Source: Candidatus Gottesmanbacteria bacterium CG_4_10_14_0_8_um_filter_37_24 (GTDB lineage Bacteria; Patescibacteriota; Microgenomatia; 2-02-FULL-39-11). Taken from it: a stretch of DNA of 43,281 nt. Every line of letters starts with the position of its first letter. Position 1 is the stretch's first letter. Below are positions 1 through 22,573 of this stretch, one piece after another. The notes beneath the pieces were generated by a model that was given only the letters and a program-made list of their open reading frames with translations, was not told where the DNA came from and made no database searches. The translations under genes and the position numbers were made by a program. The DNA lies in contig PFMK01000091.1 in assembly GCA_002785215.1 (NCBI GenBank), positions 1 through 43,281 of the forward strand. Reading direction: 5' to 3'.

Positions 1-335
1 GGGAATAGCCAAACTGTATGCTTAAAAATGTTGCAGTAATATTTGTCCCTTGCAACAAACCACGAAGATATGTAAAAATCTGGACAGGCATAGCTTTACC
101 TCCTAGTAAGACTATGCCTCATTTATATTTAGCTTGTCAAATCAATCACTATGTTGTTAAGGTGCGTAAGTACTGCTTGGGTATTAAAGGATAGATAATG
201 AGTCAGTGATTTCATGAAGGTAAAATATAAGAATCAGTATACATCTCCTTGGATTTGAATCCCTGCTTTACTGGAAGGAAGAGCTTCTACTTCATCTGTC
301 TAGAAAGTCCGGCTTTCCCCCTCAAGATCCTTCGG

Positions 336-407
336 TGGGCCTGCTTGGGATCGAACCAAGTACCTGTTGTTTATAAGACAACCGCTCTACCGGTGAGCTA
401 CAGGCCC
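336..407 (-). tRNA. tRNA-Ile with anticodon UAU (AUA decoder)
   Basis: The reverse complement folds as a cloverleaf. Acceptor GGGCCUG/CAGGCCC; D arm GCUC-ACCGGUA-GAGC; anticodon arm GUUGU-CUUAUAA-ACAAC; variable AGGUA; T arm CUUGG-UUCGAUC-CCAAG; discriminator A. The 3' CCA is not fully encoded (CCG follows). Confidence 0.9.
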
Positions 408-613: not shown

Positions 614-2971
614 CTACAACTTCGCCCTTTGTGAGATTTCTGCTTCCACCAACTCTCTCGGCCGTCCGTATTTCAACCGGGATAGCGAAAGTATTGCTTC
701 TGCTACCTTCTGGTTTTCCATTTTTTTCATGGCACTCATATCTTTTCTTAAATCTACAGAGAAAGGCGGCATGGGTTTGTTACCTACAATTGTGTTGATA
801 TAAGCATTGTAAACATCCACATTTATTAAGTCAGATTCAGTAAATACAGAAGAGAACCAGTGTTGTAGATAATTGGCATCAGTTACACCTACGCGAAAAG
901 TAATCAGAGTACCTACGTTGCCGAATACGGCATTTTTTACTTCTTCATCCATCTGGCCGATAAACTGGTTTGCCACACATAAGTTCAGACGGAACTTTCT
1001 GGCTTCAGACAGTATTTGAGCAAAGTCGGGTGTTGCGAAATTCTGGAATTCATCAACATATAAAAAAAAGTCACGCCTTTTATCCTCAGGTGTGTCTACC
1101 CTGCTCATTGCTGCCGCCAGTATTTTCGGAATCATAATAAGACCTAAGAAGCTGGAATTCTCTTCACCAAGCTTACCTTTGGCAAGATTAATAAGAAGAA
1201 TCTTGCCTTCATCCATGACTTTTCGGAAGTCAAAGGCGCTTTTACTCTGTCCAATTATGTTTCTCATCAGTTTATTTGTAACAAACCGTCCAAACTTGGA
1301 GACGATATAATCCAATACTTCTGACTTATGAAAATCAGATGTCTGTGCGATCTGATCAGTCCAATATCGCCTGACAATAGGATCCTGAACTTTTGGTAAT
1401 AACTCCTGGACATACGCGGCGTCAGTAAGCACGCGGACTATTTCCACAAAAGATGCACCCGGTTCGACCATCACTGTAAGCATGGCGTTTCTTATGGCAT
1501 GTTCAAATCTGGGTCCGATAATACCGGTTTTCTGGGGATCGTAAAGCTTGTACATCAGACCGATTATTGAAGAACAAATAAAATGCTTCTGTTCTTCCGT
1601 ATAAGCTTCTAGCATATTAAGTCCCATTGGCCTCTCAGTATCAGAAGGATCAAAATATATGACATCTTCGGCTCTCTCCGGCGGGATAAGAGGCAAGATA
1701 CCTTCGACTAGATCACCATGCGGATCAATCACTGCCAAACCATTCCCTGCCCTTATATCCTGTAAAATCATATCTTTTAAAAGTACAGATTTCCCCACAC
1801 CGGTTTTCCCAATAATATAAAGATGTCTTCTCCTATCATCAAGTTGCATATACACTGGCTTTGATATACCTCTATAAGTACTTTTACCTACAAACATACC
1901 TGAAGAAGGAATTTCTACTGGTGCCGGAGCTCTTTTTGAGGTCAACCAACTTATATGTGGAGTCTCAATTGATTTATTAGGGAAATGGAAAATGGTTGCC
2001 AGTTCCTCACTTGACAATACAGAATATTGCTTCCTGGGCCAGTTAAAAACAGGAAAATATCTGTATATGAAATCAACCATAAACGATCCTTTCATAAATT
2101 GTTTGGCTCTCACGAAATGATTCTGATCGGAGGAAAATTGAGCCAGGGTAGTCTCTATATTATGCAGATGCATTTTCGCTGATTCCAAAGATGAAGAAGA
2201 AATAACCACCCTTATTACCGTATCGAAACCGGGTTTAGAAACTTTACTTTCAATTGATTCTAATACTTTTGGATCTACATTATAATGAGCTTTTTCCGGG
2301 TCGGCCTCTGTCTTTTTAATACTTGAAATATAGCTTCTACCTGTTTTTTTATATTTCTCGCCGCCTGGAGAAACCAGTATTTGAATGGCTGCACCTTCAC
2401 CTGTCTGCATTTTACCTAAGGCTGAGGTTATGGCAGAAAGAGGATCAACAGGAAGGTCTTTATATACTTTCATCGGATAGAAATCATTATGTTTCAAGAT
2501 GTAAGACGCATATGCCACCTTACCTTTTTCATCAAAAATATTGTATTCGTCTACTTCTTTGATGTCTGCTCCCGGATACATACCATATATCTGTTTCTCG
2601 AGAAGATCCCTGATATGGTGATTTACGGAAACATAAAATCGTATATCCCCTGGTAAGCCGATAATCTCAAAAGCAATATGTTCCTTGGGCGTAAGAAATG
2701 AAAAAAGACCTCCATGGGAAAGTGAAGAAAGTACGCCGAAAAATTGTTCCGCAGCATCTATCTTTACCTCATTGGCCTTTGGTACCACAATTTGTAGTAA
2801 AACAAACTCCAAACTCTGTTTTTCCCGATTCCGGTATTTCCACCACAGGAAAAGAAAATAAAATAGTAAAAAAAAGCCTATAAAGAAAAGAGTTACAGCC
2901 GCAAATGAAATGGCAAAATTCTCTATCTGATAAATAAAATTTGGATTGATACCACTGTCAATAATTGGCAT
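614..2971 (-). CDS. Membrane-anchored P-loop NTPase of the TraD/TraG/VirD4 (type IV coupling protein-like) family
   Basis: 785-aa ORF with an N-terminal hydrophobic segment (AVTLFFIGFFLLFYFLFLWW). Walker A is GKTGVGKS and the Walker B-like motif is FFLYVDEFQNF, followed by ARKFRLNLCVANQ. This layout is typical of DNA-translocating coupling ATPases. Confidence 0.7.
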   Translation of the reverse strand: MPIIDSGINPNFIYQIENFAISFAAVTLFFIGFFLLFYFLFLWWKYRNREKQSLEFVLLQIVVPKANEVKIDAAEQFFGVLSSLSHGGLFSFLTPKEHIAFEIIGLPGDIRFYVSVNHHIRDLLEKQIYGMYPGADIKEVDEYNIFDEKGKVAYASYILKHNDFYPMKVYKDLPVDPLSAITSALGKMQTGEGAAIQILVSPGGEKYKKTGRSYISSIKKTEADPEKAHYNVDPKVLESIESKVSKPGFDTVIRVVISSSSLESAKMHLHNIETTLAQFSSDQNHFVRAKQFMKGSFMVDFIYRYFPVFNWPRKQYSVLSSEELATIFHFPNKSIETPHISWLTSKRAPAPVEIPSSGMFVGKSTYRGISKPVYMQLDDRRRHLYIIGKTGVGKSVLLKDMILQDIRAGNGLAVIDPHGDLVEGILPLIPPERAEDVIYFDPSDTERPMGLNMLEAYTEEQKHFICSSIIGLMYKLYDPQKTGIIGPRFEHAIRNAMLTVMVEPGASFVEIVRVLTDAAYVQELLPKVQDPIVRRYWTDQIAQTSDFHKSEVLDYIVSKFGRFVTNKLMRNIIGQSKSAFDFRKVMDEGKILLINLAKGKLGEENSSFLGLIMIPKILAAAMSRVDTPEDKRRDFFLYVDEFQNFATPDFAQILSEARKFRLNLCVANQFIGQMDEEVKNAVFGNVGTLITFRVGVTDANYLQHWFSSVFTESDLINVDVYNAYINTIVGNKPMPPFSVDLRKDMSAMKKMENQKVAEAILSLSRLKYGRPRELVEAEISQRAKL

Positions 2972-2996
2972 ATTATAAAATCAAAAAATTTGTTGT

Positions 2997-3461
2997 TTAA
3001 GTTCTCACTCGGATTATCTTACCGTGAATTACCTTTAACGCAATATGTGCTTTCTGCAGTTTTCTGATACACCAAATAGATAACCATTTAAGCGCGTTGG
3101 TAATACTTATATGTAATCCCGTAACCACTTGCTGATCAGAGATCGGTAACACTATTTTTGGTAAAGTCTGAGACGCGGAAACCGGTACAGAAGATCCTGA
3201 AGGAGTCACTCCTAATTTCTTAATATCAGGCGGCAACTCGATAGTTTCGGAGACTTTCATAACCCCGGCTCTCTCTACTTCTTTTGGGACTTCTATCTCT
3301 GAAGATATCTCTCTTGCCGTCTCACTCCCACCGCTTATTGGCATTACCTCACGCTCTTTACTTATTGAAGCAGAACCTGTTTGGACATTACTTTTATTTT
3401 TAAGATCAGGAACCTGATCATTAGAATTTTGGGATGATTTCCCCTGAACGGCAGTATTCAT
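2997..3461 (-). CDS. Hypothetical protein (polar low-complexity N-terminus, hydrophobic helix near the C-terminus)
   Basis: 154-aa ORF, 25 nt upstream of and co-oriented with the ATPase gene. I recognised no motif. Confidence 0.45.
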   Translation of the reverse strand: MNTAVQGKSSQNSNDQVPDLKNKSNVQTGSASISKEREVMPISGGSETAREISSEIEVPKEVERAGVMKVSETIELPPDIKKLGVTPSGSSVPVSASQTLPKIVLPISDQQVVTGLHISITNALKWLSIWCIRKLQKAHIALKVIHGKIIRVRT

Positions 3462-3554
3462 AAAATTATTATTAAATTGTATACCTTAGTAAATTTATAC
3501 TAAAAAACTTAAGGCTATTCCATTTTATACCCTTTTACACTGGAAATGATATTT

Positions 3555-4166
3555 TCAGTGCAAATCTGCTTTATTTCTTTTTGCCGCAAATCGGAGTAAA
3601 ACGGGTATAAATTTATACGATTTGCTGAGCTCCACAATTGTGAACGTCAAGGGAATAATAACCATATTCCCGATTAGATTGTATTTTAAAAACGGTATAC
3701 CAAGTATATATGCATCAAACAGGCCGGAAAAACTCCTGTCATACATACCCCAGCTATCCAGAATCCAAACACCGAAATTCGTCCATAGATAAAACCATAC
3801 GCTCGCACCTAAGCCTAAAAATGTTGACTGTATAATTTTATAAAATGACTTTTTTTTAATGAAATGCTTTAATAATCCATTAATACTGCTATTCTTGAAA
3901 AAGGCAATACTTACCAGACCAATAATAATATAAGCACTCCAGGTGAAAATAAAAATATTTGTATTTCCTATGACCACATCAGATACTAACATTATCCCTA
4001 AGGGCACAAATACCGACCAGTAAATCCCGAGATACGAAGCAGCAAGTAAAGTTGCTACGGTAACAAATTCAACATTCGGTCCGAGATGAAAATAGGTTCT
4101 TGAGAAAATTCCCAGCAAGACCAGAATAATCGCCGGGATTAATTTATTTTTTTTTATATTAAGCAT
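3555..4166 (-). CDS. Polytopic membrane protein, possibly a vitamin/cobalamin transporter S-component-like protein
   Basis: 203-aa ORF with about 5-6 hydrophobic helices. It starts 15 nt after the DUF4430 gene, in the operon downstream of the cobalamin riboswitch. The function is inferred from context only. Confidence 0.6.
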   Translation of the reverse strand: MLNIKKNKLIPAIILVLLGIFSRTYFHLGPNVEFVTVATLLAASYLGIYWSVFVPLGIMLVSDVVIGNTNIFIFTWSAYIIIGLVSIAFFKNSSINGLLKHFIKKKSFYKIIQSTFLGLGASVWFYLWTNFGVWILDSWGMYDRSFSGLFDAYILGIPFLKYNLIGNMVIIPLTFTIVELSKSYKFIPVLLRFAAKRNKADLH

Positions 4167-4181
4167 AAAAGTAAATCAGTT

Positions 4182-4640
4182 TTAGAATGAACTGTATTTC
4201 CATTCAACCGTATCTCCGGGTTTAATTATATATTGATCTGCCGACTTATCCCCTGATCGATCGTTTACCGAGTACATCCACGCCTTTTCATTTGAGTTCT
4301 GTTTCCCTCCAATAGAGGTAACCATCAAACCAAAATCGTATTCTTTTGTAAAAATCTCTAAACCGCTGTCTTTTGAAGCGATCACTAATGACTCATAAGC
4401 GTTATTTGCTTTTACTTCACCCGTAATTATATTACCGTCACCAAAATCAATTACAACTTTCTCCGTGGTTTTTTCCGGAATCTCAGTCGGAGAAATAATT
4501 TTTGGTCCGCTTTTCTTTCCTGCTATCTGACTGTTAGATTTATCTGGATAATAATTTCCGCCTCTTAGACTTAAAGTTGCTCCAACAAACAGAAAAATAC
4601 TTGCAATGATTATTATTTTTATCAGGTTTTTTCTGATCAT
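4182..4640 (-). CDS. DUF4430 domain protein (transcobalamin-like fold family), membrane-anchored/secreted
   Basis: N-terminal signal/anchor IIIIASIFLFVGATL. The C-terminal signature WMYSVNDRSGDKSADQYIIKPGDTVEWKY matches the DUF4430 pattern (W.Y.VNG...y.lk.GD.i.w.y). Confidence 0.7.
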   Translation of the reverse strand: MIRKNLIKIIIIASIFLFVGATLSLRGGNYYPDKSNSQIAGKKSGPKIISPTEIPEKTTEKVVIDFGDGNIITGEVKANNAYESLVIASKDSGLEIFTKEYDFGLMVTSIGGKQNSNEKAWMYSVNDRSGDKSADQYIIKPGDTVEWKYSSF

Positions 4641-4657
4641 ACATGTAATCTATTTTG

Positions 4658-7168
4658 TCATATATAATCCTCTATCACAAGTGGACGATATTGATAAATA
4701 ACTTTAAAAAGAGGAAAAATCAACTGCTTTTTTTTCTGACTTTGTTTTTGAGTTGGATCAAAATTATTCATCTTTTTACTAAATCCAATTCTTGACAAAT
4801 ATTCAATACTGCGAAGACTCTCCATCCTACAGGACGGGGTTCCTTTAAGGTATTGTCTGAAACCCCGTACCGAAAGTCCCAAAGTACCACTCATCCCCGT
4901 TTTGACAAGGCGGGGTCTTCTGGTACTGGGGTAAGGATAAGAAATTGAATACCTGTCAGGATTTATTGAGCCTATATTACCTGATATGTTTCCAATGTCT
5001 GTATGGGGAAAAATTGCATTCGTAGAAAATCCCAATTGAGAAATTATTTCACCCTTCAACGCTAGATATACCCCTCCCAAAATACAAGCTAGGATAAAAA
5101 TAAGTGAACAAGAATCAGGAATTATTCCAGATTCCGGATGTTGAATTCTACTGGAATATGTCTTATCGTCTAATAATACCAACTCAAACTCATTGAGTAG
5201 TCTTTCGTATGACCTAAAAGTACTACCAAGTGATTCAACATCAACTAATTTATCATCGAACGAATCAACCTCTATCAAAACACGACTGGCTGCCTCTTTC
5301 ACTTCCCGATACAAAAGAGCAGAAAAGAAACACCTTTTTGCTTTTGTCACATCCTTTTTGTTGATTAATGAAATTAATGCAATGATTCTAACTACAGCTT
5401 CATATCTTTTATCTTCTATAGATATTTCATTTTCATGATTAAGGTGGGATATAAAAACTACCAGCACTTTTTGTCCTAATATAATTATCGCGTCGGAGAG
5501 TGGTTTTTCATCTACCTCATCTTCAATATCATCCTTTTTATCATGATCTAAACTAATACGGTCATCTGTTTCTTCTTCCGTCAAAATCCTAAATAATATC
5601 TCCAGACCAGGTGCAAAAGCAGTTACCATATCCTCCGTATACATTACCTCAGGCTCGGTAAAATTGTTACCCAATAGATCTATAACTGACCTGTCAATTA
5701 TACCGGTAGCATTATTGGGGATTACGTCCGAGAAGTATGATAATAATCCTTTTCGTACTTCCCTTTCTGTACTTTCAAATACTCTCATATACGGATCCGG
5801 AAAATCAAATATTTGTTTTGGAAAGACCCTACACTCAATAGCAGGACTAATATTTATATCTTCAGATGCAGCGGTAAGATTTGAATAAGAACGATGCGAT
5901 ACTTCTACCCTTATTTGTCCGTTTGATTCAGGTAAATTGTCGACTTTTTTATCCGTTGACTTCCCGGGTTTTTCCATCATAGTGTCTTCACCATATAAAA
6001 TATTTGTGAAGGCTTTGTTCACACCATTTTTATCGGATGCAGTTCTGCCTACAACCGACATAACTGCGAACAAACGATTTAGTAACTGTTCTCTTGACCC
6101 AAATAATTCAGTTATTCTCCTGCTACCCGTACGTTCTTCTGTATTTTCAGGTTTACGATCTTCAGCCTGAATATTTTCTTTCTGAAATAATGCACCTGTC
6201 TTTGGTTTTGCAGAAAGGATCATAGTTATTTCTGACTCTGTATTGGCATCTCCCTTATTTTTTCTTTTTTCATCTTCTTTCACATCTTGCGTATCTTTGT
6301 TAGAAAGAAAAAGAAATCCATGTACTATAGATTGAAAAGCAACTGCAATATCAGATGTATATGCTTCCTTCAGCCTGCTTTCATAAGTATCCTTATAAGC
6401 TTCGATCTTTTGTTGTCTTTCTCTATCAGGTACTTGTACATCTTTCTCAAATCTCCTTACAAATTCTTCATAAAGACCTTTTTCCTGAATGCTTAATGAA
6501 GATCTATAAGCATGATAAACATGCTTGTTTCCGAAGTCAGACTTACCTTTTATTATTAATGTCTGATCTTCTACCCTAGAATCCGTATCTTTCCCCCCAC
6601 CCAGTCGCCTCATCATATTTGTCAAAGTCTCCCTAGTTCCGTAAAGTTGATATGAATATGCAGTCACCATATCTCCATCTTTCTTCCATAAATATGCACG
6701 ATGGGGAGGATGAGACGCCTCTTCTCTATTGTCTTTGCCGGGACTTACCCAAAACATGGAGATAGCACCGTCTGTACTGGCCAAATTACGGGCCCGTTTA
6801 TCAATCCTTTCCCATTCCTTCCTTTCACCAAATCCGTATTCGCCCGCAGCTGTCCAAACTTGAATCGGCTCATTATTAAAATCGGGTGAAATCAGCGTTT
6901 GTTCTTCCTTAAATTCCCCTGTGATTTTATCTCTGTATTGTTTTCTAGCAACTTTTAATCTGTAAATACCTATTGGATCAATATCTATATGTTCGCTTTT
7001 CAAAGTAGCCAGATCAGAAGCTTGAGATTTAATTGCCATCTCTTTTCCCTCCCGCAAATGTCTTCCAAAAGATATTCTGGAAAGTGAAGAACTGTAACCG
7101 CATAGACCGTCCTGCGAGACAGTTCCCGCGGTATTTCCAATCATTTCCGATAGTGTTTCAATCGACAT
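4658..7168 (-). CDS. Large uncharacterised protein (836 aa as drawn) with one C-terminal-proximal TM helix; first gene after the cobalamin riboswitch
   Basis: Uninterrupted ORF. The ATG at 7168 lies only 14 nt after the terminator U-tract and has no SD. The internal ATG at 7037-7039 (MAIKSQ...) is preceded by GGGAGGG (7047-7053) at 7-nt spacing and may be the true start. I recognised no family motif. Confidence 0.7.
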   Translation of the reverse strand: MSIETLSEMIGNTAGTVSQDGLCGYSSSLSRISFGRHLREGKEMAIKSQASDLATLKSEHIDIDPIGIYRLKVARKQYRDKITGEFKEEQTLISPDFNNEPIQVWTAAGEYGFGERKEWERIDKRARNLASTDGAISMFWVSPGKDNREEASHPPHRAYLWKKDGDMVTAYSYQLYGTRETLTNMMRRLGGGKDTDSRVEDQTLIIKGKSDFGNKHVYHAYRSSLSIQEKGLYEEFVRRFEKDVQVPDRERQQKIEAYKDTYESRLKEAYTSDIAVAFQSIVHGFLFLSNKDTQDVKEDEKRKNKGDANTESEITMILSAKPKTGALFQKENIQAEDRKPENTEERTGSRRITELFGSREQLLNRLFAVMSVVGRTASDKNGVNKAFTNILYGEDTMMEKPGKSTDKKVDNLPESNGQIRVEVSHRSYSNLTAASEDINISPAIECRVFPKQIFDFPDPYMRVFESTEREVRKGLLSYFSDVIPNNATGIIDRSVIDLLGNNFTEPEVMYTEDMVTAFAPGLEILFRILTEEETDDRISLDHDKKDDIEDEVDEKPLSDAIIILGQKVLVVFISHLNHENEISIEDKRYEAVVRIIALISLINKKDVTKAKRCFFSALLYREVKEAASRVLIEVDSFDDKLVDVESLGSTFRSYERLLNEFELVLLDDKTYSSRIQHPESGIIPDSCSLIFILACILGGVYLALKGEIISQLGFSTNAIFPHTDIGNISGNIGSINPDRYSISYPYPSTRRPRLVKTGMSGTLGLSVRGFRQYLKGTPSCRMESLRSIEYLSRIGFSKKMNNFDPTQKQSQKKKQLIFPLFKVIYQYRPLVIEDYI

Positions 7169-7181
7169 ATTTCAAGACATG

Positions 7182-7208
7182 AAAAAACCCTCTTTCCGAA
7201 GGAGGGTT
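7182..7208 (-). terminator. Intrinsic terminator, probable expression platform of the cobalamin riboswitch
   Basis: The minus strand reads AACCCUC-CUUCGGAAA-GAGGGUU followed by UUUUUUC. It lies about 100 nt downstream of the aptamer and immediately upstream of the 836-aa ORF. Confidence 0.7.
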
Positions 7209-7287
7209 ATTATAAATCAGTATTTTTGATTTAAAAGGTTAGAGAATAATCGTCAAATTAACTGATCTTTTCTATCTCCTGCTCGGG

Positions 7288-7418
7288 ATTTCCCGTCTTA
7301 ACGGGATATGCTTGAAGGTACGTGTCGGACTTGTATTGGCAAACAGATAAAGCTTCACCAATATTTACCGTTGCGGCACAGTTCCCAATTTCCATGGGAT
7401 TCCATAACACATCAAGCT
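7288..7418 (-). promoter_or_regulatory. Cobalamin (B12) riboswitch
   Basis: The minus strand carries a P1 helix GCUUGA (7412-7417) / UCAAGC (7310-7315). The core UGGAAUCCCAUGGAAAUUGGGAACUGUGCCGCAACGGUAAA aligns almost position-for-position with the E. coli btuB core GGGAAUCCAGUGCGAAUCUGGAGCUGACGCGCAGCGGUAAGG. A B12-box-like AAGUCCGACACGUACC is present. An extra hairpin UCCCGU-UAAG-ACGGGA lies at 7291-7306. Confidence 0.85.
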
Positions 7419-7965
7419 ATTTCTTATTTTTTTTCCAAATTGATTCAGTAACACCTGCTTTGAAATTCAAGTATCTTGCCATGATAAAAAATAAGTCTGA
7501 TAGACGATTTAAATAGATGATTATTCTGCTGTCGACTTTTTCCTTTAAGGATAAACCTACTATCTCCCTCTCTACCCGCCTGCATACGGCTCTGGCAAAA
7601 TATAGAAAGGTCGCACCTTCAACGCCTTCAGGTAGTATAAAATTGGACAATTCAGGAAGTTTGTTATCCAGATCGTCAATTATTCTTTCCATTTCCGTCA
7701 CTCTTTTTTCTAATTCGTTAATATTATCAGGAAATCCTGCAAGAGAACTACCGACTATAAACAAGTCTTTTTGTATTACGTTGATGAATTTTTCCAACCT
7801 CTTGTCATGAAGTTTAACAATAACAATCCCAAGTAAGCTATTTAGCTCGTCAATAGATCCATAAGTATGAACACGCAAATTATTCTTGAAAAGACGCTGT
7901 CCGCCGTAAAGGGATGTTTTTCCAGAATCCCCTGTACGGGTATATATATTTACTTTCGAAGGCAT
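7417..7965 (-). CDS. pduO: PduO-type ATP:cob(I)alamin adenosyltransferase
   Basis: The N-terminus IYTRTGDSGKTSLYGGQRL is the PduO/MMAB family signature. Length is 182 aa. Confidence 0.88.
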   Translation of the reverse strand: MPSKVNIYTRTGDSGKTSLYGGQRLFKNNLRVHTYGSIDELNSLLGIVIVKLHDKRLEKFINVIQKDLFIVGSSLAGFPDNINELEKRVTEMERIIDDLDNKLPELSNFILPEGVEGATFLYFARAVCRRVEREIVGLSLKEKVDSRIIIYLNRLSDLFFIMARYLNFKAGVTESIWKKNKK

Positions 7966-7990: not shown

Positions 7991-8030
7991 ATATTTTCCC
8001 CTGTCAGCATATATTTTCCCCTGTCAGCAT
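7991..8030. repeat. Perfect 2 x 20-bp tandem duplication (atattttcccctgtcagcat)
   Basis: Copies at 7991-8010 and 8011-8030 are identical. The second copy contains the nrdJ stop codon (8024-8026). Confidence 0.95.
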
Positions 8031-10345
8031 TCGGAATATCCGCAGCTATAACATTTCTTGCATCCTTCCTCATACGCAAGCGCAGCCTCGCCACAAGAAG
8101 GACAAAGATCATATTCTGATTTCTCCACCGGAATAGCCTGTTGGGTCATAACCGATAAATTTGCCTGAACCGTCTCCGGTGAAGAAGGTTTATGCCCATT
8201 TTTTACTTTGTATCCAAAGTGCATTGCTAGTATTTTTGCCACAGCATCTGGAAGAGATCTTACTTTCTTATCACCAAAACCCAACGATTTTGATCCTCCT
8301 ATACCTATCAGCTGATTGAAAATCTGCTTGGCTCTTTCGCTGGTTGATACGTTCGATTGCATTCTAAGAACCAAAGAAGCAAGTCTCCCCATCGCTTCTG
8401 CCATTGCGGTTACGTCAGAACCTGCTTTTCCTACGTTAATAAACAATTCCATAGGTTCATTATTCCCGTTGGTATTGATGGTGACAAATGCCACTCCAAC
8501 TGGAGTATCTATTTGGTAAGTAGCTCCATGCACCATCATAGGTCTGGGCTTAATTTCTACAACTGCTTCCCCATTTGATTTAGGTTCTTTTTTCTCCTCT
8601 TTCTTGTCAACTATTTTTTCAAGCACACCTGGTCTGCTACCATCTCTCATATACGTCAACCCTTTGCATCCAAGGTCGTATGCAAGCGTATAAAGTTTTT
8701 TAACATCATCTATTGTATGGCTGCTTGGGGCGTTGACTGTTTTTGAGATTGAGGCATCTACATATTGCTGAATCGCTACCTGTACTTTTATATGTTCTTC
8801 CGGAGTTAAATCAGTGGCAGAAACAAAATATGAAGGAATTGGTTCGTCTGGATGTGTCTTTTTCCATTCTTCAAATAAAGGATGGAAAAGCCTGTGCTCT
8901 CCCAATCTGTCTCTTCTGATAAATGAAAATTCATAAACCGGTTCTATTCCTGAAGACACGCCCGACAGAAGCGAAGTGGATCCTGTAGGCGCTTGTTGGA
9001 GGAGAACTGAGTTTCTTATACCGTATTTTTTTATGTTGTCGCGGGTTTTTTTGGGAAGTTTTTTGATAAAATATCCCTTTAGATATTTACTTGCGTCAAA
9101 TTTTGGGAAGGGGCCTTTTTCTTTTGCAATTTCTATAGACGATTCGTAAGCTGCGTCTCTTACCGTCTTATATATCTTGTCAATGATTATGAGAGATTCC
9201 GGTGAACCGTATCTTATTTTCATCTTTATTAAAGCGTCACCAAGACCCATTGTTCCTAGTCCTATTCTTCTTTCACCGTTCTGTTGAACTTCTTTTATTT
9301 GCGGAAAAATATAAGTATCCGCATCAATGACATTATCCTGGAAACGAACTCCTATTTTGGCAATTTCCTCAAGTCTCTTAAAGTCAAATTTTCCATTATT
9401 TACAAGTGCTGCCAAATTAATCGAACAGAGATTACAAACCCCCCAGGCTGGTAATCCTTCTTCTCCGCATGGATTGACACAATTCACTTTGTTGAAATAC
9501 CAATTGTTAAACCATTTATTATATCTTTCCATAAACACAATCCCCGGCTCCGCAGAACTCCATGCCGCTTCACAAATAAGATCCCATATTTTTCTGGCTT
9601 TTACTGTTTTATATACCTTTACCTTCTTCCCCATTTTTTTCCAGTCATCTAGATACCCATCCCAGACTTGATCATAATCCTTATCATTTATATCAGGAAA
9701 CACCAGATCCCAATCAGCATTTTTTTTGACTGCTTCCATAAATTTGTCTGAAACACAAACTGACAGATTGGCCCCGTTTATTCTCCGCAGATCCTTTTTT
9801 ACGGTAATAAACTCTTCTATGTCCGGATGCCAATCCCACAACATCAGCATTAATGCGCCTCTTCTTGTACCGCCCTGCTGAATTATATCTTTGGTCGCAA
9901 CAGAAAAAAGTTCTGCCCAATTGCACGGACCGGAAGAAAAACCATTCACTTTTTTGACTCTGGCACCTCTGGGCCGAAGTGAGGAAAAATTTATTCCCAC
10001 TCCTCCACCTCTTGCCATAATCTCTACCATTTGCTTAAGATTATCTAAGATTCCGTCTCTGGAATCTTTAGGAGAAGGAATGACAAAACAATTATAGTAA
10101 GTTACTTTGTAACCGGTACCTGCCCCCGACAAAATCCTGCCCCCGGGTACGAATTGGAAATCCTCCATCACGTTATAAAATTTCTTTTCCCATAAATCCC
10201 GTACCTTCTCGTTTTCAATCTTGGCAATACAATTGGCGACTCTTTTCCACATTTGTAGAGGATTTTTCTCAACGGGTATGCCTTTTTCGTTTTTGAGAGA
10301 GTATCTGTCTAAAAATACTTGCTGGCGGATTCCTGTCAGTGTCAT
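8024..10345 (-). CDS. nrdJ: Class II (adenosylcobalamin-dependent) ribonucleotide reductase
   Basis: 773 aa. The N-terminus VFLDRYSLK..., the GGGVGINFSSLRPRGA motif, the NPCGE catalytic-Cys region and the C-terminal Cys-rich tail CPSCG...CKKCYSCGYSEC are all typical of NrdJ. Confidence 0.92.
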   Translation of the reverse strand: MTLTGIRQQVFLDRYSLKNEKGIPVEKNPLQMWKRVANCIAKIENEKVRDLWEKKFYNVMEDFQFVPGGRILSGAGTGYKVTYYNCFVIPSPKDSRDGILDNLKQMVEIMARGGGVGINFSSLRPRGARVKKVNGFSSGPCNWAELFSVATKDIIQQGGTRRGALMLMLWDWHPDIEEFITVKKDLRRINGANLSVCVSDKFMEAVKKNADWDLVFPDINDKDYDQVWDGYLDDWKKMGKKVKVYKTVKARKIWDLICEAAWSSAEPGIVFMERYNKWFNNWYFNKVNCVNPCGEEGLPAWGVCNLCSINLAALVNNGKFDFKRLEEIAKIGVRFQDNVIDADTYIFPQIKEVQQNGERRIGLGTMGLGDALIKMKIRYGSPESLIIIDKIYKTVRDAAYESSIEIAKEKGPFPKFDASKYLKGYFIKKLPKKTRDNIKKYGIRNSVLLQQAPTGSTSLLSGVSSGIEPVYEFSFIRRDRLGEHRLFHPLFEEWKKTHPDEPIPSYFVSATDLTPEEHIKVQVAIQQYVDASISKTVNAPSSHTIDDVKKLYTLAYDLGCKGLTYMRDGSRPGVLEKIVDKKEEKKEPKSNGEAVVEIKPRPMMVHGATYQIDTPVGVAFVTINTNGNNEPMELFINVGKAGSDVTAMAEAMGRLASLVLRMQSNVSTSERAKQIFNQLIGIGGSKSLGFGDKKVRSLPDAVAKILAMHFGYKVKNGHKPSSPETVQANLSVMTQQAIPVEKSEYDLCPSCGEAALAYEEGCKKCYSCGYSEC

Positions 10346-10381: not shown

Positions 10382-10828
10382 TTATAACAGTTTATTTAAT
10401 TCTTTTTCGAAGTCCTCAACATCAACAAATCTTCTGAATACCGAAGCAAATCTGATATAGGCTACTTTATCTATCTTTTTTAATCTCCCGGCAATTAACT
10501 GACCGATTTTTTTACTTTCTATTTCTACTGAATCAAATCCCCGCATTTCTCTTTCCACTTCATCTGCAATTGTCTCAATATCTTCAATACCAACCATCGT
10601 TTTTTCGCAAGCCTTTAGCATACCGTGTTTTAATTTATCTCTATCAAACTGTTCTTTTTTTCCATCCTTTTTGATTACTATGAGCGGAACGTTTTCTATT
10701 CTCTCGTAAGTCGTAAATCTCTTATTACAAATACTGCATTCTCTTCTTCTTCTGGTGGTTCCTAAATCTTCACTGTCGCGTGTTTCTACTACTTCTGTGT
10801 CTTTATGGTTGCAATATGGGCATTTCAT
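10382..10828 (-). CDS. nrdR: NrdR transcriptional repressor (Zn-ribbon + ATP-cone)
   Basis: MKCPYCNHKDTEVVETRDSEDLGTTRRRRECSICNKRFTTYERIE is the canonical NrdR N-terminus. An ATP-cone follows. Confidence 0.93.
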   Translation of the reverse strand: MKCPYCNHKDTEVVETRDSEDLGTTRRRRECSICNKRFTTYERIENVPLIVIKKDGKKEQFDRDKLKHGMLKACEKTMVGIEDIETIADEVEREMRGFDSVEIESKKIGQLIAGRLKKIDKVAYIRFASVFRRFVDVEDFEKELNKLL

Positions 10829-10880: not shown

Positions 10881-10956
10881 ACACGCTTAGGTGTGAAAAC
10901 ATAAAAGCGCTATCTATAGTGTCCGATGAAATATTAAGACACTACATATCTTGTGT
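10881..10956 (-). promoter_or_regulatory. Putative NrdR operator region (three ACAC...GTGT palindromes)
   Basis: The palindromes are acacgcttaggtgt (10881-10894), gcgctatctatagtgt (10907-10922) and acactacatatcttgtgt (10939-10956), upstream of nrdR. The last two have AT-rich cores resembling the NrdR-box consensus acaCwAtATaTwgtgt. Their centres are about 33 bp apart. Confidence 0.5.
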
Positions 10957-11109
10957 CAAGATATCAAAATGTAACATTGCATAGCAGTTTTTTTTATAGC
11001 CTCGACTATTTGATTCGACATAAGAAAAATTTTATTTTGGGATTTGAAATTATCAAAATTGTTCATTAATACGGGATATGAAATAAAAAGTGATCAATTG
11101 AGTAATTAT

Positions 11110-14491: not shown

Positions 14492-15283
14492 TTATGACAG
14501 AATATTGGTCAAAAGAAAAATAATCAGGGAAATAACTACAATTGTACCCCCGCTTGCCAGATCAAAATAATAGGAGGTAAATAATCCTATTGTCACGGCA
14601 AGTATAGAAAAAACAACGGATAATATCAGTGTCAGCATAAAACTTCTTCTAAACTGGAAAGCGGTAAGAACCGGGATCACCATCAGAGCACCGATAAGAA
14701 GTATACCTACTACCCTCATCGATAAGGTGATTGTTATCCCTGCCAAAACTACCAGGATAGTATTAAGAAGATTTACCGGAATTCCACTGGCTCTGGCTAG
14801 CTCCTCATCTAAAGAAATCAGAAAAAAACCTTTATACAATAAGCCTATTGAGGTAAGCACCAAAAGTCCAAGCCCTAATATAAATAATAAATCCAAAGAG
14901 GACACTGTGGAGATGCTGCCAAATAAGTAACTTCCAATATTGACGTTTATTCCTTTGACAATAGAGAATATAACTACAGCCAACGCCAGACTACCGGAAA
15001 GAAAAAGAGCTAGTACAGATTCACCCATAATTTTTTTGGATGCTCTTAGTTTCTCTATTCCAACTGCTGCTAAAATAGACACGATTATAGCCGTAAAGAA
15101 AGGATAGATTTTCGTCAGAAATCCTATCGCAGTACCCAGAAGCGATACATGAGCCAGGGTATCTGCCATTAAAGAATAACGCCTTACCACGAGGAAAATA
15201 CCAATAAGCGGCGCGATAACAGCAATCATCAGACCTGCCATGAAAGCTCGGATCATGAAATCATATTGAAAAATTTCCAGCAT
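14492..15283 (-). CDS. Metal (Zn/Mn-type) ABC transporter permease
   Basis: 263 aa and very hydrophobic. The ADTLAHVSLLG motif is typical of the ZnuB/TroC/MntB family. Confidence 0.85.
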   Translation of the reverse strand: MLEIFQYDFMIRAFMAGLMIAVIAPLIGIFLVVRRYSLMADTLAHVSLLGTAIGFLTKIYPFFTAIIVSILAAVGIEKLRASKKIMGESVLALFLSGSLALAVVIFSIVKGINVNIGSYLFGSISTVSSLDLLFILGLGLLVLTSIGLLYKGFFLISLDEELARASGIPVNLLNTILVVLAGITITLSMRVVGILLIGALMVIPVLTAFQFRRSFMLTLILSVVFSILAVTIGLFTSYYFDLASGGTIVVISLIIFLLTNILS

Positions 15284-15284
15284 A

Positions 15285-16037
15285 TTATTTATGAATTACT
15301 TTTTTCATGTTGTCTCCATATAGCTCTTCAAGATATGAACCTTTATCGAGTTCTTTTGAAAGCGTATGGCAGACAAGCTTGCGGTTTAAACAAAGTACAT
15401 ATTTTGCCTTTTGGGAAATCGCGTCAATATCATGCGAAACAAAAATAATTGTTAGACCAAAGTCACGGTTCAGATATTCCAATAAATTGAAAAAATTGTC
15501 CTTTGCTGTCATATCAACTCCCATTGTCGGCTCGTCAAGTATGAGAATTTTTGGTTCCCCGGCAAGAGCGCGTGCTATAAATACGCGCTGTCTCTCACCT
15601 CCGGAAAGGTCGGAAAGCAAACGGTCTTTAAGATTGTCAATCTTTGAAATAACCATTACTTCTCTTATTTTATTTATATCTTTCTTCTCTAATCTCTTTA
15701 AAATACCTACTTTTGCAAATCTGCCGCTTGCTACCACTTCCCATACTGTTACCGGAAACTGAGTATCTATTTGGGCAATCTTTTGGGGAACGTAACCCAC
15801 CTCGTATTTTCTCTTATATAACTTACTATTTTGCCCGAATATTTTTATTTCTCCCGAAGTCGGGGCAGTCAGTCCGAGAATAACCTTAAGTAGAGTTGTT
15901 TTTCCTGCTCCGTTTGGACCGATTAAAGCCACATAATCGCCCTGATTTATGGAAAAACTGATATTTTCCAAAACTGTCTGGTTTTGATATTTGACTTCTA
16001 TGTTTTTTACTTCTATGGCTTTTATTGCTTGTTTCAT
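15285..16037 (-). CDS. Metal ABC transporter ATP-binding protein
   Basis: Walker A GPNGAGKTT, signature LSGGERQR and Walker B ILILDEP. It sits between the permease and binding-protein genes. Confidence 0.88.
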   Translation of the reverse strand: MKQAIKAIEVKNIEVKYQNQTVLENISFSINQGDYVALIGPNGAGKTTLLKVILGLTAPTSGEIKIFGQNSKLYKRKYEVGYVPQKIAQIDTQFPVTVWEVVASGRFAKVGILKRLEKKDINKIREVMVISKIDNLKDRLLSDLSGGERQRVFIARALAGEPKILILDEPTMGVDMTAKDNFFNLLEYLNRDFGLTIIFVSHDIDAISQKAKYVLCLNRKLVCHTLSKELDKGSYLEELYGDNMKKVIHK

Positions 16038-16942
16038 TTGCAGGAAAGGGCAAGTTTTAGATTAATAATATTATCTTCCATAAGGGAAATGTAATCCTTG
16101 TTTTGGGCAATTTCTTCACTGGTCAAACTCTCAACCGGGTTCAAAACCAGCGTCTTGGCTCCCACTTCTTTAGCCAAAGTCTCCGATAATTTTGGACTCA
16201 CCAGAGTCTCAAAGAAAATATATTTGATATTTTTCTCCTTGGCTAATTTTGCTGTTTCACCAATACTTCTCGGCGAAGGTTCCTGATCAGGTGAGATACC
16301 CGCAATAGACAGCGTCTGGAAATTATATCTTTTTGATAAGTACGAAAAAGCATTATGAGATACGATTATCTCATTTCTACTGCAGTCTCCCAACCCAACT
16401 ATCATCTCTTTATTTAGAATATCCAGTTTACTAATGTACTCATGGCTCTTTTCCTGATAGTAGTTTTCGTTACTTTTATCAATTTTTATTAATGCCTCAG
16501 AAATCAACTCCATCTCTCTTTTGGCGTTGACAGGATCGACCCAAACATGAGGATCGGTAACAGTCTTGTCCTTATCTGTCTTCAGAAGATCAAAATAATC
16601 AGACATTTTTAATATAACAACTCCTTTACCTTCTAAATCGTCAACGATTTTATCAGCCCAAGGTTCAAAACCGGCTCCGTTATAAATAAAGAGGTTTGAA
16701 TTATAAATTCTACCTATATCTGAAGGACTTGGTTCAAAGTCATGCGGCTCAATTCCCATAGGCAGTATTTGTACCACATCGATTTTATTACCGCCTGCCT
16801 GCTCGGCAAAATGAGCCAAAGGATAGAAACTCGCACTCACTCTTATTTTCCCTTTAACATTTTCCCTATTTGATTTTCCTGTAAGTAATAATACCCCAGC
16901 TATACCTACCAATATCACTAGAAATAAAATTAACTTCTTCAT
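16034..16942 (-). CDS. Metal ABC transporter substrate-binding protein (ZnuA/TroA family)
   Basis: N-terminal anchor, then EPHDFEPSP, DPHVW and VSHNAF motifs characteristic of cluster A-I metal-binding proteins. It overlaps the ATPase gene by 4 nt. Confidence 0.85.
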   Translation of the reverse strand: MKKLILFLVILVGIAGVLLLTGKSNRENVKGKIRVSASFYPLAHFAEQAGGNKIDVVQILPMGIEPHDFEPSPSDIGRIYNSNLFIYNGAGFEPWADKIVDDLEGKGVVILKMSDYFDLLKTDKDKTVTDPHVWVDPVNAKREMELISEALIKIDKSNENYYQEKSHEYISKLDILNKEMIVGLGDCSRNEIIVSHNAFSYLSKRYNFQTLSIAGISPDQEPSPRSIGETAKLAKEKNIKYIFFETLVSPKLSETLAKEVGAKTLVLNPVESLTSEEIAQNKDYISLMEDNIINLKLALSCK

Positions 16943-16978
16943 ATTTTTATAAGCTATTTACCCCAGTACCAGACAAGT

Positions 16979-17476
16979 TTAACTTGTCGGTACAGGGTTT
17001 CGCCTCTTTATATCAGGAAGTCCCGTGCTTTCAGCCCGGGAAGGCTCACATTTATTACAGATGCCAATAAATTCCAATGAATGTTCGATTATATGAAATT
17101 CATTCTCTTTTATGATATTTTCTTCGAGCTGATTGACAGTTTTTTCCAATGCGCTGGAGACAACCGGAGTAATTTTGTTGCACATCTGACAGACTGCATG
17201 ATGATGGTGATTGTCCTTAAGCTGAATCTCGTAACGCATTTTCCCGTCTTTGAACTGAATTTCCTTGACGATCCTTTCTTTGACTAATGTGTTTATTTCC
17301 CGGTAAACGGTGGTTTTATTTACAATCATCCCCTTTTTTATTAAGAGTCGATTAAGTTCAAAAACGTCAACCGGTTGCCCTGCTATTAACAAGAGATTTA
17401 TGATAATTTTTCTTGCATTGGTAAGCCTGTAGCCTTTTGACTTTAGGTTCTTCAAAATCATTTGTATATTATTCAT
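16979..17476 (-). CDS. Fur-family metalloregulator (Zur-like)
   Basis: A wHTH (RLTNARKIIINLL...TVYREINTL) is followed by HHHHAVCQMCNKI and CNKC metal sites. The ORF track extends to 17557, but that extension overlaps the operator/promoter and a palindromic element, so I prefer the start at M28 (17474-17476). Confidence 0.8.
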   Translation of the reverse strand: MNNIQMILKNLKSKGYRLTNARKIIINLLLIAGQPVDVFELNRLLIKKGMIVNKTTVYREINTLVKERIVKEIQFKDGKMRYEIQLKDNHHHHAVCQMCNKITPVVSSALEKTVNQLEENIIKENEFHIIEHSLEFIGICNKCEPSRAESTGLPDIKRRNPVPTS

Positions 17477-17483
17477 TAAGCAT

Positions 17484-17512
17484 ATTTTAATGCAACTAAG
17501 TTGCAATTGCAA
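17484..17512 (-). promoter_or_regulatory. Predicted promoter with an embedded Fur/Zur-box palindrome
   Basis: The minus strand reads TTGCAA(-35)-TTGCAACTTAGTTGCAT-TAAAAT(-10)-ATGCTTA-ATG. The 17-nt spacer contains a perfect 7-1-7 inverted repeat, TGCAACT-t-AGTTGCA (17491-17505). The -10 element lies 7 nt from the ATG, which implies a leaderless or near-leaderless mRNA. Confidence 0.5.
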
Positions 17513-17552
17513 GAAATGATAATTCCTCGACAGGTTGACGGGGGTATCAGTC

Positions 17553-17664
17553 GTCATTCCGAGCGTAACAAAGTGAAGTCGAGAAATCCTCCAACACTCA
17601 GATCGTGGAAGATCCCTCCACGCGCTTCGGAACGTCTAACGTTCCTTCGCTTGGTCGGGATGAC
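17553..17664. repeat. Imperfect long palindromic (REP/MITE-like) intergenic element
   Basis: The arms gtcattccgagcg... (17553-) and ...cgcttggtcgggatgac (-17664) are inverted complements. The GC-rich interior stands out from the AT-rich flanks. Confidence 0.5.
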
Positions 17665-20861: not shown

Positions 20862-21692
20862 TTAGTCTTTATGCTCGTGATCTGTGACGTGAATATGCAA
20901 ATGCTTGTGTGTCTCCTTCTTATGTTTGTGTCTGTGATCGTGTACCAAATTATGCTTCGACAAAAAGGGTATATCTTCTAAAATATTCATAGGCTTGCCC
21001 AGTCTGACCATTTTGTGCTCCTCAGATAAAACCAGGACTCTATCTGCCATATCTTCCACAATCGACAGGTCATGGGTGGCAATAACAACTGTATTTCCCC
21101 TATCTGACAGTGTGTCTAAAAAATCAAGAAACCTGCTTTGGCTTCTGGGATCGAGACTGGCGGTCGGCTCATCAAATAACCATACTTCCGGATTGAAGGC
21201 TAATACCGTAGCAAGCGCTACTCTTTTTTTCTCACCTCCAGACAAAAGGTATGGCGGACGGTTTTTCAGGTGTTCAATATCCAGTAATTTTAATGCTGTT
21301 TTTGCGCGTCTCAGCACTTCACTATTACTGAAACCCAGATGAAGCGGGGCAAAAATCACTTCATCCCAAACTGTCGGGGAAAAAAGCTGGACATCAGGGT
21401 CTTGGAAAACAAAACCAACTTTTTTCCTGAAATCATAAAAATTTTCCTCATTTTGGAAAAAATCAGCATCGATTTTAACACCAAAAGCTTTGATACTGCC
21501 TTTACTCGGAAAATATAATCCGTCCAACATCTTAAGGAGAGTACTTTTACCTGATCCGTTGGCACCCAATATGATCAACCTTTCTCCTTTGGAAATCTTC
21601 AGGGAAATATCTTCCAAAGCCTGTTGATTCCGGTAATAGTAGCTTACCTTCTCCAGTTCAAATACCGGACTATCGGAATTTTGTTTCTTCAT
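20862..21692 (-). CDS. cbiO: ECF/cobalt-type ABC ATPase (CbiO/EcfA-like) with a His-rich C-terminal tail
   Basis: Walker A GANGSGKST, signature LSGGEKKR and Walker B WLFDEPT. The tail is HDHRHKHKKETHKHLHIHVTDHEHKD. Confidence 0.85.
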   Translation of the reverse strand: MKKQNSDSPVFELEKVSYYYRNQQALEDISLKISKGERLIILGANGSGKSTLLKMLDGLYFPSKGSIKAFGVKIDADFFQNEENFYDFRKKVGFVFQDPDVQLFSPTVWDEVIFAPLHLGFSNSEVLRRAKTALKLLDIEHLKNRPPYLLSGGEKKRVALATVLAFNPEVWLFDEPTASLDPRSQSRFLDFLDTLSDRGNTVVIATHDLSIVEDMADRVLVLSEEHKMVRLGKPMNILEDIPFLSKHNLVHDHRHKHKKETHKHLHIHVTDHEHKD

Positions 21693-21694
21693 GG

Positions 21695-22528: not shown

Positions 22529-22573
22529 ATGAATTTCCCCATTACCTTTCTGAAAGAAGTGGTAGACTTTAGC

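Follow-up and report, generated by a model that had tools for sequence, protein, structure and literature searches.

Organization of the locus

Contig PFMK01000091.1 (assembly GCA_002785215.1) of Candidatus Gottesmanbacteria bacterium CG_4_10_14_0_8_um_filter_37_24 contains a predicted cobalamin (vitamin B12) riboswitch directly ahead of a gene for an 836-aa protein, which we refer to as the large gene and the large protein. The whole stretch of 43,281 nt that was analyzed is called the window. On the minus strand of the window, the order is nrdR, nrdJ, pduO, a 248-nt leader, the open reading frame (ORF) of 836 aa, and then the genes for a DUF4430 protein, a DUF6580 protein, a 154-aa protein and an ATPase (Table 1). 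NrdJ is the B12 consumer of the locus, and NrdR is the regulator of NrdJ. The pduO gene is adjacent to nrdJ and lies directly upstream of the riboswitch, with its stop 1 nt before the aptamer; it is not under riboswitch control. The large gene, the DUF4430 gene and the DUF6580 gene form a trio with gaps of only 17 and 15 nt.

An earlier note on this DNA, made from the sequence alone, had described an aptamer and a terminator ahead of three tightly spaced genes and had proposed a possible novel B12 acquisition system. All of these features, the aptamer, the terminator and the three closely spaced genes, were found at the positions described. The note had also named NrdJ as the only B12 consumer in view. 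NrdJ was identified correctly, while the PduO adenosyltransferase and the CbiM/CbiQ/CbiO transporter had been overlooked.

Table 1. Features of the Gottesmanbacteria locus, with positions in the window
Feature	Position	Strand	Basis or remark
NrdR	10382-10828	(-)	Orthologous genes carry NrdR Pfam domains; window ORF matches orthologs by phmmer
NrdJ, class II adenosylcobalamin (AdoCbl)-dependent ribonucleotide reductase	8024-10345	(-)	Pfam
PduO-type ATP:cob(I)alamin adenosyltransferase	7417-7965	(-)	PF01923, 3.7e-51; TIGR00636, 3.5e-53
Predicted cobalamin riboswitch aptamer, class-II (AdoCbl-II) type	7308-7418	(-)	Own covariance model R1, 86.4 bits
Small extra hairpin UCCCG-UUAAGA-CGGGA, between aptamer and switching motif	7291-7306	(-)	Sequence reading
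Switching motif UCCCGAGCAGGA	7277-7288	(-)	Conserved immediately after P1
Intrinsic terminator	7182-7208	(-)	Stem 7186-7208, T-run 7182-7187, dG -8.8
Two-codon mini-ORF (ATG TCT TGA)	7172-7180	(-)	Just after the T-run; seen only in this window
836-aa protein, first gene behind the riboswitch	4658-7168	(-)	ORF list; without known family
Conserved N-terminal alpha/beta domain, residues 1-290	6299-7168	(-)	Alignments A3 and A5; AF2 model
C-terminal tail: lysine-rich run, then FPxxG[IV]IYxY	4661-4735	(-)	Family alignments
DUF4430 protein, 152 aa	4182-4640	(-)	PF14478
DUF6580 membrane protein, 203 aa	3555-4166	(-)	PF20221
154-aa protein	2997-3461	(-)	Conserved synteny; no family
Type IV coupling protein (T4CP)/HerA-like membrane ATPase	614-2971	(-)	Synteny; weak TrwB/TraG/DUF87 Pfam matches
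CbiM (fused to PDGLE)-CbiQ-CbiO, energy-coupling factor (ECF)-type cobalt/nickel transporter	20862-23590	(-)	Domain matches; CbiQ/CbiO 20862-22528

The cobalamin aptamer

When the whole window was scanned with Rfam at the gathering threshold, no cobalamin element was reported. In E-value mode, RF00174 matched positions 7300-7473 with 28.9 bits (E=1.2e-5), below its gathering score of 31.5. Both results count against a cobalamin riboswitch at this site. The orthologous leaders (loci are given by our own L numbers) nevertheless included two that passed RF01689 (AdoCbl-II), with 38.2 bits in L002 and 43.8 bits in L007 against a gathering score of 36.5, while the others reached 22-32 bits in Rfam scoring.

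The loci of seven homologs of the large protein, found with a word index, were compared, and a covariance model, R1, was built from eight aligned leaders. R1 placed the window aptamer (Table 1) close to the 7310-7417 given in the earlier note. Across 15 loci it found exactly one match each, always directly 5' of the large gene, and the seven loci outside its seed scored 40-81 bits. Seven further metagenome loci, some of them redundant with the first 15, again had one match each in the same place. Since R1 finds a single match per locus, always at the same position and also in the seven unseeded loci, chance is excluded.

The helices of the aptamer covary. RNAalifold showed compensatory changes in 12 of 22 pairs among the eight leaders. 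In an alignment of 15 sequences, 90.5% of the cells were paired and 15 of the 22 pairs had a compensatory change. None of 500 shuffles reached the observed values, and sliding the 3' partners reduced the paired fraction to 34-48%. The eight-leader alignment has an invariant core, CUGUGCCGCAAC, and a conserved GUCCGGAAC box, with variable helices on either side. The box reads GUCCGACAC in the window, and the spaced G.C.G..AC positions are invariant in the same alignment. The P6 loop of the window aptamer contains an inserted plain hairpin; a variable P6 hairpin also occurs in several other copies, and the P6 extension is absent from 6 of the 15 loci (L001, L002, L007, L008, L012 and L016).

The earlier note had named a score below the gathering threshold as a refutation of its proposal. 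Taken alone, the window copy formally fulfils that refutation, which we override because of the comparative evidence from the orthologs, R1 and covariation. Judged from the aligned leaders, the window aptamer is almost certainly a genuine but divergent member of the cobalamin riboswitches, and its ligand would be cobalamin.

Structured insertions of 50-100 nt were seen in the P4 region of L001 (7719-7892), L008 (2434-2570), L014 (5672-5824) and L015 (2173-2306). A GCCCTAAAC...GTTTAGGGC hairpin, possibly a small mobile or repeat element, is common to the insertions of L001 and L008.

The expression platform

The switching motif UCCCGAGCAGGA was exact in 14 of the 15 leaders, and L015 has UCCCGUGCAGGA, with one substitution. 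The terminator hairpin and its T-run were also kept in 14 of the 15 loci and are absent from L015. In 13 of the 14 loci, the best RNAduplex partner of UCCCGAGCAGGA in the whole downstream leader was the terminator hairpin, mostly its 5' arm, and the duplex had a dG of -10 to -18.6 kcal/mol, compared with -7 to -15 for the terminators. From these predicted pairings we propose that UCCCGAGCAGGA is the antiterminator strand that competes with the terminator.

The 3' arm of the terminator contains the only Shine-Dalgarno-like sequence of the leaders (GGAGG or GAGGG; GAGGG in the window), and the start codon directly adjoins the T-run in about half of the leaders. Formation of the hairpin would thus block both transcription and translation. 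In L015, which has no terminator, the GGAG of the motif lies 5 nt before the start codon.

A promoter scan of the window placed the best promoter-like site upstream of nrdR at 10930-10959 and found none between pduO and the aptamer. On this evidence, the riboswitch is probably an internal attenuator of an nrdR-nrdJ-pduO transcript, which would start at nrdR.

The small extra hairpin between the aptamer and the motif varies among the loci, with a comparable insertion in L007 and none in most others. The mini-ORF of the window occupies the place of the true MxE start in other loci. In the window, the actual start of the 836-aa ORF (7168) lacks its own Shine-Dalgarno sequence, and this start together with the mini-ORF suggests re-initiation or a small duplication.

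Linkage of the riboswitch to the large gene

The standard block of the lineage is nrdR-nrdJ-pduO-[riboswitch]-large gene-DUF4430-DUF6580-150aa-ATPase. The block is kept in loci in which the N-terminal domain (N-domain) of the large protein has only ~21-28% identity (L014-L017), and the same block was recovered when we started from a DUF6580 homolog. In L007, L008, L021 and L023, the large gene stands alone with the riboswitch, beside greA, a cupin gene or a methyltransferase-like gene. In L016, the DUF4430 and DUF6580 genes are missing while the riboswitch and the large gene are retained. The large gene thus occurs without the transporter genes in these five loci, and the link to B12 riboswitches in other genomes, on which the earlier note had staked its proposal, was present in every homologous locus examined. 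Since the riboswitch is kept in the rearranged loci, the conserved unit is the riboswitch plus the large gene, and this unit implies that the large gene would be wanted specifically when B12 is scarce.

No gene of the block evolves faster than the large gene. Among the loci, identity is 21-49% in the N-domain and ~20-28% in the tail, compared with 33-53% for DUF4430 (the next fastest), 46-59% for DUF6580, 67-83% for the ATPase and 74-86% for NrdJ.

A cupin-like protein (Cupin_2, Pfam) follows the stand-alone large gene of L007 at 3336-3668. In L023, a 103-aa ORF at 4453-4764, judged by eye to be cupin-like, follows the large gene in the same position. A small cupin-like protein may be a second recurring partner of the large gene.

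The 836-aa protein

An exhaustive profile hidden Markov model search of 1.84 billion representatives gave a family of ~56 cluster representatives. All four matches among the GTDB species genomes were Candidatus Gottesmanbacteria, one related locus came from a genome labelled 'Patescibacteria group bacterium', and every member that was traced to a named genome belonged to Gottesmanbacteria or to the "Patescibacteria group". A locus search with the narrower alignment A3 gave 4 GTDB loci and 8 metagenome loci. The members have a common build of a ~285-aa N-domain, a variable charged region of 400-1100 aa and a conserved C-terminal tail, and the tail is still recognizable in members in which the N-domain is ~20% identical.

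Pfam and NCBIfam searches with the single sequence, and Pfam searches with every member of two alignments, gave no consistent family match. PHROGs and PADLOC had no match to the large protein, and a profile search of the PDB with the family gave nothing meaningful (best E 0.05, annexin). Foldseek found no significant match of the N-domain in the PDB (best E 0.06, TM <0.25) or in BFVD (best E 0.007, TM 0.14). The earlier description of the gene as uncharacterized was therefore correct, and the large protein is a new, fast-evolving and uncharacterized family, found with a B12 riboswitch in every locus examined.

The N-domain was modeled with moderate confidence (AF2; pLDDT 73.9, pTM 0.74) as a six-stranded sheet with flanking helices. 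In alignments A3 and A5, E59 and R157 are invariant, and T91, S142, V168 and S224 are nearly invariant. The N-terminal arm, which comprises the first 20-35 residues, is rich in Gly and Pro, conserved, and modeled as disordered; it contains Cys23 (codon 7100-7102). At one aligned position of the arm, the full-length members have either a Cys (GGSC, DGPC or TPDC; ~40 members) or an Asp-His pair (GDH or DxH; ~14 distant members). Since exchange of Cys for His at a fixed site is the pattern expected of a metal or corrin axial ligand, we propose a ligand role for this position, and the alignment suggests that the arm Cys or Asp-His may bind corrin or metal.

Three other readings of the large protein were examined and set aside. 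The N-terminal G-G-S-C could recall a lipoprotein or signal peptide; this was rejected because the sequence has no basic n-region and no Leu-rich core, and because the Cys is replaced by Asp-His in a sister clade. The transmembrane helix near the C terminus that the earlier note had reported corresponds to residues 686-704. This stretch lies in an insertion without a counterpart in the seven closest homologs, so that no conserved transmembrane helix is established; a marginal hydrophobic segment is present in about half of the family at inconsistent positions. Bacteriophytochromes attach a tetrapyrrole to an N-terminal Cys, and a relation of the N-domain to the bacteriophytochrome PAS/GAF domains was considered. 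The Foldseek probability of 0.13-0.23 and TM of ~0.2 were far too weak.

A part for the large protein in B12 acquisition, as the earlier note had envisaged, was not supported, as the protein has no signal peptide, conserved transmembrane helix or recognizable B12-binding domain and occurs without transporter genes in five loci.

The DUF4430 and DUF6580 proteins

The protein that the earlier note had described as having about six transmembrane segments matches DUF6580 (PF20221, 93.3 bits, 2.5e-26), and AF2 modeled it as an all-helical bundle (pLDDT 86, pTM 0.80). Six of its seven best Foldseek matches were the S-components RibU, PanT and ThiT, with probabilities of 0.80-0.97 and TM of 0.41-0.60, although the E-values were weak, at 0.13 or worse, despite the high probabilities. 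CbiM and FolT came next in the list at 0.44-0.47. One family member also matches PF12822, and the NCBI family name is 'putative transport protein'. The single sequence had no match in the PDB. A 29-member DUF6580 profile run against the PDB (177,635 chains) matched only 6FNP_A, at a marginal E=0.032 over 82 positions. 6FNP_A is the 182-aa 'membrane protein' chain of the ECF-CbrT B12 transporter, and from the chain length and the composition of the complex we take it to be CbrT. The weak Foldseek E-values and the marginal profile match reduce the weight of the assignment.

According to its model, the DUF6580 protein has the six-helix fold of an ECF S-component, and we propose it as a putative B12 translocator distantly related to CbrT. 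A BtuM-type assignment by sequence was rejected, as the DUF6580 alignment has no invariant Cys and the PDB matches of the profile included no BtuM at E<=10. We found no literature on DUF6580.

The DUF4430 assignment of the earlier note was confirmed by PF14478 (51.7 bits, cutoff 23.8, 1.2e-13, residues 98-150), and the orthologs in the other loci also match PF14478. In alignment A8, the protein begins with a hydrophobic segment that serves as a membrane anchor or signal, and a linker joins this segment to the conserved domain. In transcobalamins, DUF4430 makes up the C-terminal domain (PMC4350170). When the PDB was searched by sequence and by profile, matches to transcobalamin or intrinsic-factor structures were absent and the searches returned only spurious repeat-protein matches, and the link between DUF4430 and transcobalamin rests on Pfam and PMC4350170. 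By this domain and build, the DUF4430 protein is proposed to be an extracytoplasmic B12 binder. Its identification with BtuH was dropped; the BtuH papers do not mention DUF4430.

CbiQ (EcfT-like) and CbiO, ~17 kb from the trio, are the only ECF-type energizing module within the window. No riboswitch was found upstream of CbiM-CbiQ-CbiO, and this stretch of the genome contains no B12 biosynthesis genes. By analogy with BtuM, the DUF6580 protein may act alone, or it may act with CbiQ/CbiO; against the latter, the CbiMQO-type set may be dedicated to cobalt or nickel. Overall, a role of the DUF4430 and DUF6580 proteins in B12 uptake appears likely. Uptake as the regulated function, as the earlier note expected, is supported for these two proteins as credible uptake parts and was not supported for the large protein.

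Comparison with known systems

The genes cbrS and cbrT were reportedly defined by Rodionov et al. in 2009, and CbrS would be the DUF4430 protein. The cbrT gene of Lactobacillus delbrueckii is part of an nrdJ-cbrS-cbrT-pduO cluster, and the substrate carried by ECF-CbrT is cobalamin (PMC5997447, Santos et al. 2018; PDB 6FNP), and in L. rhamnosus a DUF4430 gene adjoins rtpR (PMC9963975). The Lactobacillales cluster and the Gottesmanbacteria locus have in common a class II reductase, PduO, a small protein with the S-component fold and an accessory gene, consistent with salvage in the style of a B12 auxotroph. They differ in that the S-component here is a DUF6580 protein rather than a recognizable CbrT (E=0.032), and in that the first place among the regulated genes is taken by an inserted gene without a match in Pfam, among PDB sequences or by fold. 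In addition, the riboswitch here splits a constitutive half (nrdJ, pduO) from a B12-repressed half, and the window contains only CbiQ/CbiO and no shared group-II ECF module (EcfAA'T).

The S-component fold, the 6FNP_A match and the arrangement of NrdJ, PduO and DUF4430 indicate that the transporter is a divergent form of a known kind, and the Gottesmanbacteria locus is a divergent version of the Lactobacillus-type salvage cluster. The proposal of a novel B12 acquisition system was therefore overstated. What holds of that proposal is the switch and the theme of uptake, and the truly new element of the locus is the large protein.

The window RNA resembles the class-II cobalamin riboswitches (RF01689, clan CL00101) in its compact core of P1/P3, a P4 hairpin and P5 with a GCC-containing loop, in CGGUAAAAGUCCGG as P6 (with the P6 extension missing in 6 of the 15 loci), and in an AGGAG-rich regulatory element right after P1. 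It differs from them in the P6-loop hairpin of the window and several other copies, and in the large P4 insertions of four loci. Riboswitches of the env8 type have a ribosome-binding site masked by a kissing loop and are said, in work of Johnson et al. in 2012, to prefer aquo- or methylcobalamin. The platform here is instead a terminator with the ribosome-binding site in its 3' arm. We found no literature on Patescibacteria with cobalamin riboswitches.

BtuM is a solitary S-component-like B12 transporter and decyanase in which a cysteine thiolate ligates cobalt (PMC6072759, Rempel et al. 2018). BtuM is comparable to the DUF6580 protein as a small membrane protein with the S-component fold that is implicated in B12 uptake and may need no ECF module dedicated to it, and it offers a precedent for the Cys-Co ligation proposed for the arm of the large protein. 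In contrast to BtuM, the DUF6580 protein has no invariant Cys, and the Cys/His candidate is on a separate soluble protein.

The B12 loci of Bacteroides encode the accessory B12 binders BtuG, BtuH and BtuJ, several of them with new folds (PMC8941943, PMC10404256, bioRxiv 10.1101/2025.07.01.662609). Like the large protein, these are lineage-specific, riboswitch-linked extra proteins beside a core transporter. Unlike the large protein, which has no signal peptide or lipobox context, they are lipoproteins with signal peptides from diderm cells. The large protein also has no sequence similarity or significant Foldseek match to any structure in the PDB.

Neighboring genes

The 154-aa gene and the ATPase gene are uncertain members of the riboswitch-controlled unit; a promoter-like site lies at 3465-3493, ahead of the 154-aa gene. 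The ATPase has a very strong match to phrog_5156 (1.5e-89), whose function is unassigned, and a match to PADLOC mad8 (3e-17). A ~150-aa protein without a family always precedes the ATPase and is 48-61% identical across Gottesmanbacteria (67-83% for the ATPase). A tRNA-Ile gene (anticodon UAU; 334-407, minus strand) lies directly downstream of the ATPase gene, and L001, L004 and L005 have tRNAs at the same place.

Elsewhere in the window, a LOOT RNA (RF03000; 29055-29178, minus strand) scored 73.3 bits (gathering score 46.4) and lies upstream of ORFs of 114 aa and 1146 aa (29254-33035, plus strand). A metal ABC transporter of the ZnuA-ZnuC-ZnuB type and, next to it, a Fur-family regulator are encoded at 14492-17557 (minus strand), followed by a Memo-AMMECR1 fusion protein (17755-19302). 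In L012, NrdJ (1779-5210) has 1143 aa compared with ~775 aa elsewhere, which suggests an intein or another insertion.

Discussion

Our preferred interpretation, which we regard as moderately probable, is that an OFF-type cobalamin riboswitch at the 3' end of nrdR-nrdJ-pduO gates a B12-starvation operon, and that the large protein handles corrinoid. The riboswitch would gate read-through from the nrdR-nrdJ-pduO unit into the trio. When B12 is scarce, UCCCGAGCAGGA would pair with the 5' arm of the terminator to form an antiterminator, and the Shine-Dalgarno-like GAGGG in the 3' arm would be freed. When B12 is bound, UCCCGAGCAGGA would be withheld, on the analogy of class-II riboswitches by a tertiary contact, and the terminator would form, so that transcription stops and the ribosome-binding site is masked. 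Of the proteins made under scarcity, the membrane-anchored DUF4430 protein would capture cobalamin outside the cell, and the DUF6580 protein would carry it across the membrane, alone or with CbiQ/CbiO. PduO would then adenosylate the cobalamin taken up, and NrdJ would use the product. In the large protein, the N-terminal alpha/beta domain could form a corrinoid pocket (E59, R157, T91 and S142), to which the flexible arm could supply Cys23 as an axial or metal ligand, with Asp-His at the same position in distant relatives.

Several observations weigh against this interpretation, in addition to those given above for the Rfam scores and the transporter. No consistent base-pairing partner for UCCCGAGCAGGA was found inside the aptamer, in the P5 loop or elsewhere, and complementarity between UCCCGAGCAGGA and the aptamer was rejected as the basis of sequestration. 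The large protein has no sequence or fold likeness to the B12-binding or B12-processing proteins CblC/MMACHC, the B12-binding Rossmann domain, BtuF, BtuG or BtuH, and its variable charged region of 400-1100 aa is unusual for a cytosolic cofactor chaperone. Residues 1-27 of the arm have pLDDT <50, so that the nearness of the arm to the conserved pocket is not given by the model. Adjacency to the transporter genes carries little weight, as the block is syntenic within one lineage. The window allele has Ala at residue 107 (D107A; codon 6848-6850, GCT), where the near-identical P0001 and all seven close homologs have Asp. D107A may reflect variation between strains, a loss of activity or a fault in the assembly; codon 107 lies in the otherwise invariant WTDAGE motif. 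Taken by itself, a corrinoid-binding or corrinoid-handling role for the large protein, drawn from alignments and a structural model, is put forward only as a tentative possibility.

The first alternative is that the large protein is exported, as a surface or secreted B12 scavenger or as a host-directed effector of an episymbiotic cell of the candidate phyla radiation (CPR), with its C-terminal tail recognized by the T4CP/HerA-like ATPase. In a similar way, type IV secretion substrates reach VirD4-type coupling proteins by means of positively charged signals at their C termini. The large protein has no N-terminal signal peptide, yet its basic and hydrophobic C-terminal motif is conserved throughout the family. 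The ATPase (with weak TrwB, TraG-D_C and DUF87 matches) and the 154-aa gene come next in nearly every syntenic locus, and in L016 they lie directly behind the large gene. The large protein also evolves faster than all of its neighbors, and second in rate is the extracytoplasmic DUF4430 protein. However, no other secretion components were seen, the ATPase gene is not adjacent in the stand-alone loci L007, L008, L021 and L023, and the promoter-like site ahead of the 154-aa gene means that the pair may be a separate unit. The block is, moreover, syntenic across the lineage whatever its function, and the high conservation of the ATPase, with its strong match to a PHROG of unassigned function, suggests an unrelated general role. 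We consider export rather unlikely.

A second alternative is that the large protein does not handle B12 at all and instead has a role that spares or substitutes for B12, with repression when the vitamin is abundant. Cobalamin riboswitches are known to repress metE or B12-independent ribonucleotide reductases in this manner. The self-contained riboswitch-gene pairs of the four stand-alone loci, away from B12 genes, and the lack of a detectable B12-binding domain in the large protein would fit such a function. On the other hand, the large protein has no similarity to any enzyme, including ribonucleotide reductases and methionine synthases, and its long low-complexity tail is unlike an isozyme. 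The large gene also leads the uptake operon in most genomes, and the exchange of Cys and His at a single site points to coordination of a ligand or metal. We judge a sparing function to be improbable.

An extended form of the preferred interpretation combines corrinoid handling with export. The large protein would then represent a new class of corrinoid binder with an alpha/beta corrin domain, a Cys (or Asp-His) ligand on the arm and tail-directed export by the ATPase, that is, a 'cobalaminophore' or host-directed B12 thief of episymbiotic Gottesmanbacteria under B12 starvation. This combination is speculative and quite improbable. Finally, that the RNA is a chance or decayed resemblance and the genes are expressed constitutively by read-through from pduO would fit the window copy being below the Rfam gathering score and missed by the default whole-window scan, but the comparative data contradict it (every locus, the rearranged ones included, has a single copy in the same place; two orthologs are above gathering, covariation is strong, and the switching motif and terminator are conserved), and it is extremely improbable.

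The preferred interpretation, a B12-starvation operon under an OFF-type switch, bears on the biology of the organism. CPR genomes are tiny, and this lineage makes deoxyribonucleotides with a B12-dependent reductase, so the source of the vitamin bears on its dependence on other cells. The locus offers a testable salvage pathway that would comprise a sensor RNA, an outside binder, an S-component, an adenosyltransferase and the reductase. It would extend the uptake logic of the CbrT type from lactobacilli to the CPR through two uncharacterized families, DUF6580 and DUF4430. The ~19 related leaders form a natural series in which one aptamer core occurs with or without a P6 hairpin and accommodates large P4 insertions, and in which the platform varies from a terminator with masking of the ribosome-binding site to direct control of that site in L015. 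For the 836-aa family, the only firm property is its obligate coupling to a B12 riboswitch. BtuG, BtuH and BtuJ, which were found likewise in Bacteroides, proved to be new B12 binders.

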